Of a DNA stretch of 64,000 nucleotides, positions 9,294 through 42,412 are shown piece by piece. Position 1 is the first letter of the stretch, and every line of letters starts with the position of its first letter. The DNA is from Candidatus Kuenenbacteria bacterium (GTDB lineage Bacteria; Patescibacteriota; Patescibacteriia; UBA11705; JABHMO01). The stretch spans positions 4,376 to 68,375 of the forward strand of contig JABMRF010000040.1 in assembly GCA_013202715.1 (NCBI GenBank), given 5' to 3'. A model generated the notes under the pieces. It saw only the letters and a program-made list of their open reading frames with translations. It did no database searches and had not been told where the DNA came from. The position numbers and the translations under genes are program-made.

Positions 9294-10400
9294 TTATTCA
9301 ATTTCACCGCCCCCTAAACATTCATCTCCATTATAAAAAACACAATACTGGCCGGAGGTAATGGCTCGCTGGGGTTTTGGAAATTTCACCAGAAATTTGT
9401 TTGAAGAACGATTGTCAGGCGAACTTCCGGAAGTTCGCCTGACAATCTGACAATTTACATTTTCAGATCGATATCGGATTCGGCATTCGCATTTAAATGG
9501 CAATGTTGGAGCCGTGCCGGAAATCCAATTAACTTTTTTAACTATTAATTCTTTGGCTAAAATATCATCTTCGTTTTTACTCACCCAGAGGGTATTATTT
9601 TTTTTATCCAATCGAGAAACATACCACGGACCATCGGCAAGGCCAATCCCCTTTCTTTGCCCAATTGTGTACATTGGTAAACCGTCATGCTGGCCAAGGA
9701 TTTTACTGTCAGGCGCGACGCCTTCTCGAATAGGCCCTTTTTCAAATTTGATATATCTTTTCAAAAATTCACCCACCTTTCCATCCGCTACAAAACAAAT
9801 TTCCTGTGATTCTTTTTTGCTGGCAGTTGACAGTCCATGTTTCTTGGCCAATTTTCGAACTTGTTCTTTTGTATAATTTCCAACTGGGAACATAACATGA
9901 GCCAGATCCTTTTGCTTGATCTGATGAAGGAAATATGACTGGTCTTTGTTTTTGTCCCGTCCCACGCGTAGGGAACGGTCGCGACCGTTCCCTACGCGAG
10001 CGAAATGCCCGGTCGCGACAAAATCAACGCCCATTGGTTTTAATTTTTTCCACAACTCACCAAATTTGATATATTGATTGCAACGCACACATGGATTTGG
10101 TGTACGACCACACTCATATTCATTAACAAAATTATCTACAATTTTTTCCTTGAACGGAGCCTTCATATCAATCACATAAAACGGAATTCCGAGCTTATTG
10201 CAAACCCGGCGGGCATCTTCTGCAGATTCCAGCGAACAGCAAATGTTTTCACGAATTTTGCCCTTGATATTCTCATTCCAGAATTTCATAAAAACACCAA
10301 TGACTTCATAGCCTTGTTCTTTTAATAATACTGCGGCAACTGACGAATCCACTCCGCCGGACATGCCGACGGCCACCTTTAATTGTTTGTTTTTATTCAT
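9294..10400 (-). CDS. mnmA: tRNA-specific 2-thiouridylase MnmA
   Basis: PP-loop VGMSGGVDSS, ...NPCVRCN..., ...KDQSYFL; TATAAT 6 nt upstream of ATG and no SD. Confidence 0.9.
   Translation of the reverse strand: MNKNKQLKVAVGMSGGVDSSVAAVLLKEQGYEVIGVFMKFWNENIKGKIRENICCSLESAEDARRVCNKLGIPFYVIDMKAPFKEKIVDNFVNEYECGRTPNPCVRCNQYIKFGELWKKLKPMGVDFVATGHFARVGNGRDRSLRVGRDKNKDQSYFLHQIKQKDLAHVMFPVGNYTKEQVRKLAKKHGLSTASKKESQEICFVADGKVGEFLKRYIKFEKGPIREGVAPDSKILGQHDGLPMYTIGQRKGIGLADGPWYVSRLDKKNNTLWVSKNEDDILAKELIVKKVNWISGTAPTLPFKCECRIRYRSENVNCQIVRRTSGSSPDNRSSNKFLVKFPKPQRAITSGQYCVFYNGDECLGGGEIE
9965..9998. repeat. 34-bp perfect GC-rich palindrome inside the mnmA coding sequence
   Basis: cgcgtagggaacggtcg|cgaccgttccctacgcg; reverse complement identical. 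Confidence 0.9.
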
Positions 10401-23324: not shown

Positions 23325-23358
23325 CGTGAAGGCGACACGTCGACGTGTCGCCTTCACG
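23325..23358. repeat. 34-bp perfect GC-rich palindrome 2 nt downstream of the rnhA stop
   Basis: cgtgaaggcgacacgtc|gacgtgtcgccttcacg; SalI-like GTCGAC at centre. Confidence 0.9.
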
Positions 23359-23359
23359 A

Positions 23360-23770
23360 TTAATTCCCACTCCTTTTCTCATCAAGCGCCTCATTGACCA
23401 TCGCATCCGCCTCGGTATTATCTTCACGATAAATATGCTTGTATTCAATCTTTTTGAAATGACCTTGCAGATTGTGAATTTTTAAAAACTGTTGAGCTAA
23501 ATCCTGATTTTTAACCTTGTACTCGCCTTTGAGCTGTTTCACAACCAGCTCGCTATCTAATTTGAATTCCAATTCCGTTCCGCCAAGTTCTTTTGCTTTT
23601 TCCATCGCAAAAACAACGGCCTGATATTCAGCCTGATTATTTGTAGTTTCGCCAATGCATTTTCCTTCACTGAACAAAACTTCTTCTTTTTCATTTTTAA
23701 TGACAATGCCGATTGCAGCGGGTCCCGGATTTCCTCTCGCTCCCCCGTCGCAGTTTATTGCTAATTTCAT
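23360..23770 (-). CDS. rnhA: ribonuclease HI
   Basis: DGGARGNPGPAA, NNQAEY, REDNTEAD catalytic motifs. Confidence 0.85.
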   Translation of the reverse strand: MKLAINCDGGARGNPGPAAIGIVIKNEKEEVLFSEGKCIGETTNNQAEYQAVVFAMEKAKELGGTELEFKLDSELVVKQLKGEYKVKNQDLAQQFLKIHNLQGHFKKIEYKHIYREDNTEADAMVNEALDEKRSGN

Positions 23771-40323: not shown

Positions 40324-40944
40324 TCAAGATTTCAAACTTTCATAATGTTTTTTTCGTTCCTGTTCTGTGATAATTTTCATGAATTTTTCGTTCTCAATAT
40401 CTTCTCCCCATTTTTTTATATTGTTTTTAATGTATTTGCGGATTGATTGCAATTCATGTTCGTTGCGGATAATGCGATCGTAAAAATTTCTTTTCCAACG
40501 ATAATATCCAAATTTATCATGATTCACACACCATTTACGGACGCCAATTTTATAACCACGCACAATTGAACCCAATGATTTGGGGATTATATGCTGATAT
40601 TTGTTCTTAAAAACTCCCGAATGTAAGGGTTCAAAATCTTGAACCCTTACATTCGGATCCTGTTTATTATCAGAACAAATACGAATAATCCCATGCACAT
40701 GATTTGGCATCACCACATATTCCCACAATTGTGCATTTGGATAATGTTTTGGGATTTCTAACCAACATTTATTGGTAACGTTCCCAATCTCCGACAACCT
40801 CATTTCCCCATCAACAATTTTCCCAAAATCATGGTGCCCACGTTCCTTGGCGCAAATTGTTACAAAATAAAACCCCGACTGTGCATAATCAAATCCTGGC
40901 AATCGGATTGATTGACGATTATGGATATCGGGATTATAAATCAT
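40324..40944 (-). CDS. REP-associated tyrosine transposase (RAYT / IS200-like Y1 HUH transposase)
   Basis: HUH motif VVMPNHVHGII, catalytic region SIVRGYK, C-terminal WKRNFYDRII...IRKYI; start set at MIYNPDIH. Confidence 0.8.
   Translation of the reverse strand: MIYNPDIHNRQSIRLPGFDYAQSGFYFVTICAKERGHHDFGKIVDGEMRLSEIGNVTNKCWLEIPKHYPNAQLWEYVVMPNHVHGIIRICSDNKQDPNVRVQDFEPLHSGVFKNKYQHIIPKSLGSIVRGYKIGVRKWCVNHDKFGYYRWKRNFYDRIIRNEHELQSIRKYIKNNIKKWGEDIENEKFMKIITEQERKKHYESLKS
40617..40656. repeat. REP-like 18-4-18 perfect palindrome embedded in-frame in the RAYT gene
   Basis: ccgaatgtaagggttcaa-aatc-ttgaacccttacattcgg; encodes DPNVRVQDFEPLHSG. Confidence 0.85.
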
Positions 40945-40970
40945 AATAAATTCCGTAATGCAGCGCAGAT

Positions 40971-41010
40971 ATTTGTGTAAGGGTTCAAGATTTTGAACCC
41001 TTACACAAAT
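40971..41010. repeat. REP-like 18-4-18 perfect palindrome between the glyQS stop and the RAYT start
   Basis: atttgtgtaagggttcaa-gatt-ttgaacccttacacaaat; core GTAAGGGTTCAA shared with the internal copy. Confidence 0.85.
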
Positions 41011-41026
41011 ATCTGCATCCCTGTTT

Positions 41027-42412
41027 CTACACGAACTTCTTCTCAAACCATTTTTCCAAATCCTTGATCTTAACCCGCTCCTGTTTCATCGTATCGCGAT
41101 CGCGAACTGTAACTGAATCATCTTTTTCAATAGTTTCAAAGTCAACGGTTACGCAATACGGAGTTCCGATCTCATCCTGCCGACGATAACGCTTACCTAC
41201 ATTTCCATTGTCATCAAATTCACAAACCCACTTGGTTTTCAAATTATCAAATATTTTCTTGGCAATTTTGACAAGCTCAGGTTTATTTTTCAAAAGTGGG
41301 AAAACGGCAATTTTTACCGGTGCTAATTCTTTCTTTAACTTCAGAACAACCCGCTCATCATCGCCAACCTTCTCTTCGGTGTAAGCATCACACAAAACGA
41401 CAAATAAGGTTCGGGTCAATCCTGCTGAAGTTTCCACAACCCACGGAGTAAATTTTTTATTTGTTTTTGGATCGTTATAATTAAGTTCGCAACCGGAATG
41501 TTTTGTATGCTGGGTCAAATCATAATCCGAACGGTTGTGAATACCTTCCACTTCTTTGAATCCAAACGGGAATTCATACTCAATATCCCAAGCTTCCTTG
41601 GCATAAAACACTAGGTTTTCATGTTCATGCCAACGAAGTTTTTTCTCAGTAATCCCGAGGTCGTTAACATAAAACTCCCAACGTTCTTTTTTCCAACGCT
41701 TATATTCTTTTGTCGCATCTTTTTCTTCCACAAAATACTGCATTTCCATCTGTTCAAACTCACGAGTTCGAAAAATAAATTGACGAGCGGTGATTTCATT
41801 TCGAAAAGCTTTTCCAACCTGAGCAATTCCAAAAGGAACTTTAACGCGTGAAGAGTCCATTACATTTTTGAAATTAACATAGATTCCCTGACAAGTCTCA
41901 CCACGCAAGTAAGTTGGCTCTTCGTCCCATTTACCTGTAAAGTTCCCTAAGTTCGACTTAACCAAAAGGTTGAAGCTCTTCGCGTCCGTAAAATCTTTTG
42001 ATCCACAACTCGGGCACTTGATCTTGTCTTTATTTTTCTTGAAAATTTTATTAATCTCATCTTCAGTCATGTTTTCGTCTGCAAAAACATCAATCTCTTC
42101 GAGTAGATGATCCACTCGAGAACGGGTGTGACACTTTTTGCATTCAGAGAGTGGATCGGAAAATCCACTGACATGGCCACTGGCTTCCCAGACTTTTGGC
42201 GACATGAAAATTGCTGAATCTAGGCCAACAATATTTTCCCGATCCTGAACCATATTTTTCCACCAGACACCCTGAATATTGTTTTTCAATTCCACGCCGT
42301 ATGGGCCGTAATCATAAACTGCAGCAAACCCGCCGTATATTTCACTGGATGGATAAACAAATCCCCGCCTTTTGCAAAGGCTGATAATTTTCTCTAAATT
42401 TTTTTCACTCAT
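41027..42412 (-). CDS. glyQS: glycyl-tRNA synthetase (alpha2 dimeric type)
   Basis: class II motifs, GlyRS insertion domains, anticodon-binding C-terminus. Confidence 0.9.
   Translation of the reverse strand: MSEKNLEKIISLCKRRGFVYPSSEIYGGFAAVYDYGPYGVELKNNIQGVWWKNMVQDRENIVGLDSAIFMSPKVWEASGHVSGFSDPLSECKKCHTRSRVDHLLEEIDVFADENMTEDEINKIFKKNKDKIKCPSCGSKDFTDAKSFNLLVKSNLGNFTGKWDEEPTYLRGETCQGIYVNFKNVMDSSRVKVPFGIAQVGKAFRNEITARQFIFRTREFEQMEMQYFVEEKDATKEYKRWKKERWEFYVNDLGITEKKLRWHEHENLVFYAKEAWDIEYEFPFGFKEVEGIHNRSDYDLTQHTKHSGCELNYNDPKTNKKFTPWVVETSAGLTRTLFVVLCDAYTEEKVGDDERVVLKLKKELAPVKIAVFPLLKNKPELVKIAKKIFDNLKTKWVCEFDDNGNVGKRYRRQDEIGTPYCVTVDFETIEKDDSVTVRDRDTMKQERVKIKDLEKWFEKKFV

Follow-up and report, generated by a model that had tools for sequence, protein, structure and literature searches.

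Why does the gene of a REP-associated tyrosine transposase (RAYT) carry a repetitive extragenic palindrome (REP) inside its own coding sequence, translated in frame, and is it the peptide or the DNA hairpin that is kept there? The question is raised by a 64,000 nt stretch of contig JABMRF010000040.1 of Candidatus Kuenenbacteria bacterium, a member of the candidate phyla radiation (CPR). This whole stretch is referred to as the window, and all coordinates are positions within it. Based on the anatomy of the locus and on a comparison with related genes, it is very probably a REPtron of TnpA_Y1 subclass 2.4 (RAYT group 4) with two cognate double-foot REP hairpins, in which the hairpin in the DNA is maintained and not the peptide. 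The features on which the analysis depends are the following.

40324-40944, minus strand: RAYT (TnpA_Y1) gene, 206 amino acids plus stop, intact; based on the open reading frame (ORF), homologues, the protein alignment of the family (A1), an AlphaFold (AF2) model and a fold match
40693-40701, minus strand: codons of the HuH motif, H83-V84-H85 within MPNHVHG; based on the ORF and A1, with NHVH fitting the subclass 2.4 form NH[IFV]H
40420-40434, minus strand: codons of the Y motif, Y172-I-K-N-N176, the catalytic tyrosine with an asparagine four residues on; based on A1
40617-40656, no strand assigned: intragenic REP, perfect 18-4-18 palindrome with the shared core at 40622-40651, encoding D97-G111 (DPNVRVQDFEPLHSG); palindrome search
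40965-41016, no strand assigned: upstream REP, perfect 24-4-24 palindrome with the shared core at 40976-41005, inverted relative to the internal copy; palindrome search
40598-40681, no strand assigned: outer imperfect stem enclosing the internal REP, in which 40598-40612 pairs with 40667-40681; palindrome search and minimum free energy structure

The internal palindrome is read in frame as D-P-N-V-R-V-Q-D-F-E-P-L-H-S-G between the HVH motif and the catalytic tyrosine. The second palindrome lies between two genes, starting 11 nt past the stop of the glycine-tRNA ligase gene glyS (41027) and ending 20 nt before the RAYT ATG (40944). Both positions, and the reading of the palindrome as a REP translated within its own RAYT, had been given in a preliminary description made from the letters alone, and they are borne out by the coordinates and the translation; the REP is of the GTAG-foot type. 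The same description gave both palindromes as perfect 18-4-18 structures with a common core; both are indeed perfect and the internal one has these dimensions, but the arms of the upstream one extend to 24 nt. The shared core of 30 nt, TGTAAGGGTTCAA-N4-TTGAACCCTTACA, is 100% reverse-complementary between the two copies, including the loop (AATC versus GATT). Since even the asymmetric loop is matched, the copies are identical, inverted relative to each other and 324 nt apart. Identity over 30 nt and perfect pairing over 18 and 24 bp point to copying or homogenisation in the recent past, or else to strong constraint.

A search for GTAAGGGTTCAA-N4-TTGAACCCTTAC allowing up to three mismatches returned exactly these two occurrences in the 64 kb and no match in any of 100 dinucleotide-preserving shuffles, so no degenerate further copies were found in the window at that threshold. 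The 12-nt half-site was likewise confined to the four REP arms, in agreement with the earlier statement that the core has no other copy in the window. RNA folding around 40617-40656, which had been suggested as a check, gave a z value of -6.6 against shuffles, and the upstream REP region gave -6.4. The sequence around the REPs has a GC content of 32-39%. A search of Rfam gave only sub-threshold matches to generic miRNA hairpins.

The gene at 40324-40944 is predicted, from sequence and model, to encode an intact HUH/Y1 enzyme of the RAYT type. Its 206-aa product, initiated at ATG 40944, is a 100% match to the hypothetical protein HQ571_04475 of a Candidatus Kuenenbacteria metagenome-assembled genome; the length of 207 aa given earlier is thus one residue too long. 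A longer, 240-aa ORF with a TTG start, which would translate the upstream REP as well, was rejected: the homologues start at the position of ATG 40944 and the NCBI annotation gives 206 aa. It is an artefact and owes its length to the upstream REP, which by chance contains no stop in that frame. Among 989 homologues, the best after the protein's own entry had an E value of 2e-59, with 50-57% identity. The homologues are of the COG1943/RayT type, several carrying the source name "REP element-mobilizing transposase RayT", and the best of them show NH[VI]H, WQ and YIxNNP together with in-frame REP peptides.

For the comparison, a family set of 84 genes was assembled, comprising the window gene and 83 genes from 80 fetched genomic loci (L001-L080) which span Bacteroidota, Chloroflexota, Desulfobacterota, Cyanobacteria, Nitrospirota, Proteobacteria (including Histophilus somni) and several CPR lineages. 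In the window protein, none of the 20 invariant alignment columns is altered. Y172 is nearly invariant and N176 invariant, and H83, H85, Y172 and N176 are all present. A single-sequence phmmer search of the PDB with the RAYT protein found nothing, and a profile search was needed; a profile built from 37 members matched E. coli TnpA_REP (4ER8) at the HuH block and at the W/Y block. The AF2 model has a predicted local distance difference test score (pLDDT) of 80 and a predicted template modelling score of 0.75, and is confident outside one loop. Foldseek placed 4ER8 first among the PDB matches to this model (rmsd 2.1 A), followed by the ISDra2, IS608 and IS200 transposases, and the top 30 fold matches were all TnpA_REP, IS608, ISDra2 or IS200 transposases. 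The earlier assignment to RAYT-type HUH/Y1 enzymes is thus upheld by the profile and the fold, and by weak matches to the Y1_Tnp and REP_Tyr_transpos models.

The loop of low confidence is the part encoded by the REP. pLDDT falls below 50 at residues 99-110 and 113-117, the REP-coded segment being 97-111, and the model shows no secondary structure at residues 91-124, which connect the HuH strand (83-90) to the helix at 125-142. The stretch from HuH to W is about 30 profile positions longer than in E. coli TnpA_REP, which, with that enzyme as the reference, supports the earlier idea that the palindrome-encoded residues are an insertion. In the model, the internal REP therefore appears as 15 residues of a low-confidence, unstructured loop with no evident catalytic role.

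An arrangement of this kind has been published. Quentin, Siguier, Chandler and Fichant (2018) defined TnpA_Y1 subclass 2.4, equivalent to RAYT group 4 of Bertels et al. (2017), by the HuH motif NH[IFV]H, the W motif WQ and the Y motif YIxNNP (class 2 signature Y-x3-NP), a median length of 194 aa, a median HuH-to-Y distance of 88 aa and a variable insertion between beta3 and alphaC (PMC6006769). Its REPs are "long" and "double-foot", with 5' GT[AG]G and 3' C[TC]AC, and these, together with in-frame REP insertions which generally lie between HuH and Y, are the unique feature of the subclass; the authors judged that the insertions probably have little effect on the protein (PMC6006769). The hosts listed were Cyanobacteria, Bacteroidetes and "various phyla" (PMC6006769).

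The window locus resembles this subclass in most respects. Its closest sequence relatives are subclass 2.4 members, the HuH motif is of the expected form (MPNHVHG), and the protein has the HUH/Y1 superfamily fold with the catalytic His-u-His, the tyrosine and a polar Y+4 residue, is about 200 aa long and is without a C-terminal domain. The distance from H85 to Y172 is 87 aa, close to the published median, and the beta3-alphaC insertion is enlarged, with some 30 positions beyond 4ER8. A foot is present at both REP ends, one REP stands in frame between HuH and Y, and another flanks the gene. For group 4, Bertels et al. (2017) reported a low REP abundance, with about 14 flanking 16-mers per replicon; in the 64 kb searched here there are two copies. 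The locus differs in having WK, NNI and a GTAA/TTAC foot and in its CPR host, Kuenenbacteria. By sequence it is best placed as a slightly divergent further member of the described subclass 2.4 in a CPR genome. The preliminary description had called the arrangement unusual and had suggested recent REP activity or a domesticated insert. Neither its being unusual nor recent activity is supported, the arrangement being a published hallmark of the subclass (PMC6006769) with a REP at the same site in most family genes of many phyla.

The frequency of this internal REP was determined by scoring perfect palindromes with stems of 8-19 nt located no more than 300 nt 3' of the HuH codons. Such a palindrome was found in 68 of the 84 family genes (81%), the window gene included. 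The usual unit is 28 nt long, GTAG-GGGC-x6|x6-GCCC-CTAC, or GTAGAGAC...GTCTCTAC. The central stem bases vary between lineages and their complementarity is kept. In the window the foot is GTAA...TTAC, where the fourth base is A and is still paired with T; this variant also occurs in L033 and L044. At the protein level the consensus of the alignment is ...HGIIEL-x7-VGVQNFEPL-x6-N-FQKIIP..., in which VGVQNFEPL is the REP-coded motif, with VGVENFQPL and VGAENFQPL as variants and L108 more than 90% conserved. Many homologues have two to four tandem REP copies in the same loop, and in a few there are copies elsewhere.

The constraint is on the hairpin as DNA and not on the peptide. When each family gene was subjected to 200 synonymous-codon shuffles and the longest stems were compared, 47 of the 84 genes exceeded all 200 shuffles, with a median longest stem of 11 as against 5.7 in the shuffled sequences; for the window REP, none of the 200 shuffles reached its stem length. 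Third-position identity at sites where the amino acid is the same was 0.89 in the REP unit, compared with 0.44 in the HuH block and 0.55 in the WQRNYYE block. It had been argued beforehand that conserved core residues at this position would speak against an inserted REP; the residues are conserved within the subfamily, but through the DNA hairpin and not through a core role in the protein.

Reading frames were examined at the same site. In 48 genes the REP is read as GTA-GGG (V-G-...-P-L), in 10 genes one base over as xGT-AGG (C/R-R-G...APT), and in 10 further genes the centre is of odd length and the register was left unassigned, the peptides likewise beginning with V-G or V-R. The frame containing TAG is used by none. 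One and the same REP, GTAGGGGCACGGCATGCCGTGCCCCTAC, is translated as VGARHAVPL in two loci (L020, L034) and as GRGTACRAPT in two others (L036, L075). The reading of one REP in two frames at one site points to turnover or re-insertion and not to a single frozen event.

As to the layout of REPs near the gene, 45 of the 68 loci have the intragenic copy only, 20 have an upstream copy as well and 10 a downstream copy, so that the "upstream plus internal" form of the window is the second most common. Measured from the HuH codons, the position of the upstream copy hardly varies (-264 to -304 nt; -288 nt in the window). Distal copies in the flanks are rare (18 in 921 kb, or about one per 51 kb). A strictly inverted, REPIN-like orientation of the upstream and internal copies was considered as a family rule and was not established, since among loci with asymmetric centres six were inverted and four direct. 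Downstream copies of loci with an asymmetric centre were direct relative to the internal copy in eight cases and inverted in one.

The REP core type tracks the protein outside the loop: identity is 59% within types and 50% between them, a difference reached in none of 1000 permutations. The exact 28-nt core of the window REP was also found in 37 Joint Genome Institute (JGI) metagenome stretches (L081-L117) with GC contents of 0.29 to 0.54, and the window core is therefore a genuine REP type which extends beyond this genome. Most of these copies are outside long ORFs. In four of the stretches the core stands beside or inside RAYT homologues: two copies flank the homologue in L099, one copy is inside it in L116, and in L093 and L105, which belong to one 440-kb contig, the copies are beside it.

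Two or three family genes occur within 20 kb in each of L036 (Nitrosomonas halophila) and L026 (Fluviicola chungangensis). For the L036 pair, nucleotide identity is 98%. The L026 pair is 74% identical, yet it has the same 28-nt REP with different palindromic extensions.

Palindromy beyond the REP foot is a further property of the window copies. It was observed at 40617-40622/40651-40656 (6 bp added) and at 40965-40976/41005-41016 (12 bp added), and also in L009, L012, L020, L026, L032, L035 and L048; the added palindromic sequence is copy-specific both in the window and in some of these loci, L026 for example. Extensions of at least 4 bp were counted in 12 among 93 double-foot units, as against 0.36 expected. 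Insertion into older palindromes or hairpin-templated correction are possible explanations.

The working of such a locus can be proposed from better known relatives. E. coli TnpA_REP (YafM, subclass 2.2, 4ER8), the enzyme of the REP/BIME elements, shares with the window protein the fold and the HuH, W and Y blocks, and its substrate, a hairpin with a tetranucleotide foot, is of a similar kind; in contrast, its gene is without an internal REP, its REPs are bulged in the stem and have one foot only, its HuH-W stretch is shorter by the positions given above, and E. coli has hundreds of extragenic REP copies. The TnpA proteins of the IS200/IS605 group (IS608, ISDra2) have the same HUH/Y1 fold and recognise subterminal hairpins on single-stranded DNA. 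They belong, however, to true insertion sequences, which occur in many identical copies and have their left-end and right-end hairpins outside the gene, and their tyrosine motif is Y-x3-Q, whereas the window gene is single-copy in the window and has one hairpin within its coding sequence. By analogy with E. coli TnpA_REP, the window gene would encode an HUH/Y1 single-strand DNA nuclease-ligase which binds the REP hairpin while the DNA is single-stranded. It would read the foot, and may cut and rejoin the DNA there via Tyr172 and a metal held by His83, His85 and Asn176; the asparagine at Y+4 is the third metal ligand in TnpA_REP (PMC6006769). The two identical inverted copies would be the nearest substrates of the enzyme, kept identical by recent copying or homogenisation, and the copy inside the gene would ensure that enzyme and substrate are inherited together. 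A stronger version, in which the intragenic REP is an obligatory, DNA-maintained component, acting either as a "home" or seed copy with the upstream copy for REP propagation or as a site of self-regulation, is offered tentatively and is thought doubtful. On this version, repeated turnover at that site would account for the tandem copies and for the use of two reading frames.

Several points weigh against the assignment to subclass 2.4 and against the activity proposed for it. The scores with curated models are low: Pfam Y1_Tnp (PF01797) gave 19.9 bits, below the gathering threshold of 23, and NCBIfam NF047646 (REP_Tyr_transpos, an equivalog model) gave 31.7 bits, below the cut-off of 80. A precomputed PF01797 match exists for only a minority of the listed homologues. 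By these scores the window protein would be related to the NF047646 family and not an equivalog of it. Two signature motifs deviate. The W motif is WKRNFYD instead of WQ (W151-K152, 40489-40494), with W kept and Q replaced by K, where WQ is present in 56 of the 57 family genes in which the W block was found; the Y motif is YIKNNI, with the tyrosine and the Y+4 asparagine present and P replaced by I (N176-I177, 40417-40422), where the Y motif has NP in 78 of 80 family genes. Among the 84 proteins only that of the window has WK for WQ and NNI for NNP. The foot GTAA/TTAC likewise departs from GT[AG]G/C[TC]AC. The K of WK is at the position of Q95 of E. coli TnpA_REP, which contacts the GTAG foot (PMC6006769). 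With WK, NNI and the GTAA foot, RAYT activity could therefore be altered or lost. A co-variation of the GTAA foot with the change from WQ to WK was considered and rejected, as L033 and L044 have GTAA feet together with WQ, and so do several "VR" (GTAAGG-type) homologues in the alignment. Binding and cleavage of single-stranded REP DNA are known only for E. coli TnpA_REP, and for subclass 2.4 enzymes they are proposed by analogy with subclass 2.2. There is also little sign of active REP dissemination, given two copies in 64 kb and the scarcity of distal copies in the family. Repeated re-insertion, and not selection on the intragenic copy, could be the source of the DNA-level conservation.

This last point leads to the strongest rival of a maintained hairpin, in which the REP is a neutral passenger, tolerated in a flexible loop without a function there and owing its perfection and identity to recent insertion or to gene conversion from a pool of REPs. 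This was also the reading of Quentin et al. (PMC6006769), and it agrees with the predicted disorder of the loop, with its one to four copies among homologues, with REPs elsewhere in some genes, with the use of two frames, suggestive of repeated insertion, and with the restriction to stop-free frames, as expected under simple survivorship. It accounts less well for a perfect palindrome at one site in four fifths of the genes across many phyla when potential distal donors are so rare, for loci in which the intragenic copy is the sole one near the gene (45 of 68), and for synonymous sites which are almost frozen within the unit. The neutral reading is a serious possibility, held to be somewhat improbable. 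A further proposal, that the conserved peptide V-G/R-x-x-N/D-F-x-P-L is functional and the palindrome a by-product of its codons, could appeal to VGVQNFEPL in the alignment consensus and to the conservation of L108. It fails to explain stems which synonymous shuffles do not reproduce, the ten genes in the other frame with unrelated peptides at the same site (GRGTACRAPT, CRDVACNVST), and central residues which change as complementary pairs (VQ..E, VE..Q, AE..Q) in a segment predicted to be disordered. Based on the synonymous shuffles, the third-position identity, the use of two frames and the low pLDDT, selection of VGVQNFEPL as a peptide was rejected, and a functional motif is regarded as extremely improbable.

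The hairpins might instead be cis-regulatory, the intragenic one attenuating transcription or translation of the RAYT and the upstream one insulating it from glyS read-through, so that the enzyme is kept low. Both hairpins are predicted to be very stable, the T-run GAGTTTTTAA follows the internal one on the sense strand (40605-40616) and scores as terminator-like, in some 20 loci the spacing between an upstream copy and the ATG is fixed, and IS200 uses hairpins to limit tnpA expression (cited in PMC3733652). Across the family, however, a T-run after the internal hairpin was found in 2 of 68 genes, below the gene background of 6.8%, and an intragenic intrinsic terminator was accordingly discarded as a mechanism of the family. 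No T-run accompanies the upstream hairpin, the 45 loci with an intragenic copy only are without an upstream hairpin, and no Rfam family rose above noise. Regulation in cis is thus judged unlikely. Less likely again, and quite improbable, is a decaying relic, that is, an inactivated RAYT heading for loss with its REPs as fossils. The unique WK and NNI at two signature positions, the GTAA foot, the lack of further REP copies in the 64 kb and the sub-threshold scores would fit such decay, but the ORF is full-length and keeps the catalytic set and every invariant residue, the model is confident except in the loop, and decay does not leave two palindromes perfectly paired over 18 and 24 bp and sharing 30 nt without a difference. 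The GTAA foot, moreover, is shared with L033 and L044, both of which have WQ. A search for foreign composition of the gene revealed no anomaly (GC 0.32-0.39 here, 0.32-0.43 in neighbouring sequence), and hence no sign of recent transfer in the base composition.

Translated palindromes are also known outside RAYT genes. Di Nocera et al. (2013) described unrelated ORFs which harbour GTAG REPs, and also species in which REPtrons occur although there is no REP family (PMC3733652). Like the window REP, these intragenic REPs and the Rickettsia palindromic elements are in-frame palindromes translated as extra surface peptides, of which only those in stop-free frames survive, a likeness to the window family. 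Unlike it, they are scattered over unrelated host genes at non-conserved sites, whereas in the window family the host gene is that of the cognate enzyme and the site is conserved family-wide.

The RAYT gene is flanked by two genes on the same strand.

41027-42412, minus strand: glycine-tRNA ligase gene, directly upstream of the RAYT gene; NF003211 at 628.8 bits, Pfam tRNA-synt_2b and HGTP_anticodon
39943-40317, minus strand: PNPOx-like gene, starting 6 nt past the RAYT stop; PF01243 at 50.2 bits and ORF

Three other palindromes were observed elsewhere in the window. Two are in mnmA (9294-10400, minus strand), a tRNA 2-thiouridine synthase gene. One, at 9965-9998, is a GC-rich, perfect 17-0-17 palindrome (CGCGTAGGGAACGGTCGCGACCGTTCCCTACGCG) which encodes RVGNGRDRSLR in frame; it is of the GTAG...CTAC double-foot type with a core different from that of the RAYT-linked REP. 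It is not a net insertion, because the corresponding segment of a solved MnmA (9HLN) is of about the same length (two residues shorter). The other, a perfect 19-0-19 palindrome (GATTGTCAGGCGAACTTCCGGAAGTTCGCCTGACAATC) at 9410-9447, is in frame in the C-terminal domain and is placed where the protein carries some 8 inserted aa when compared with 9HLN. The third, at 23325-23358, is a perfect GC-rich 17-0-17 palindrome (CGTGAAGGCGACACGTCGACGTGTCGCCTTCACG) which starts 2 nt past the stop of an RNase HI-like gene (23360-23770, minus strand) and is present in a single copy in the window.

With this locus a CPR host, Kuenenbacteria, joins a family in which in-gene REPs have been known since 2018, and that picture is unchanged. 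What goes beyond the 2018 paper is the constraint on the DNA and not on the peptide, the use of both open frames at one site, and the location of the peptide in a loop predicted with low confidence and without structure. For the biology of REPs and RAYTs, the observations which could be relevant are the nearly frozen synonymous sites, the two frames and the finding that the intragenic copy is the most constant REP of the locus, and in addition the fixed upstream copy and the palindromy past the shared core. A literature search for later work on the function of in-gene REPs found none. The 2018 paper holds the insertions to be probably neutral; the constraint on the DNA and the conserved layout would also allow the hairpin within the gene to have a function. 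If the hairpin is selected in place, subclass 2.4 would be a compact, overlapping enzyme-substrate system, and would offer a handle on what RAYTs do for their hosts.

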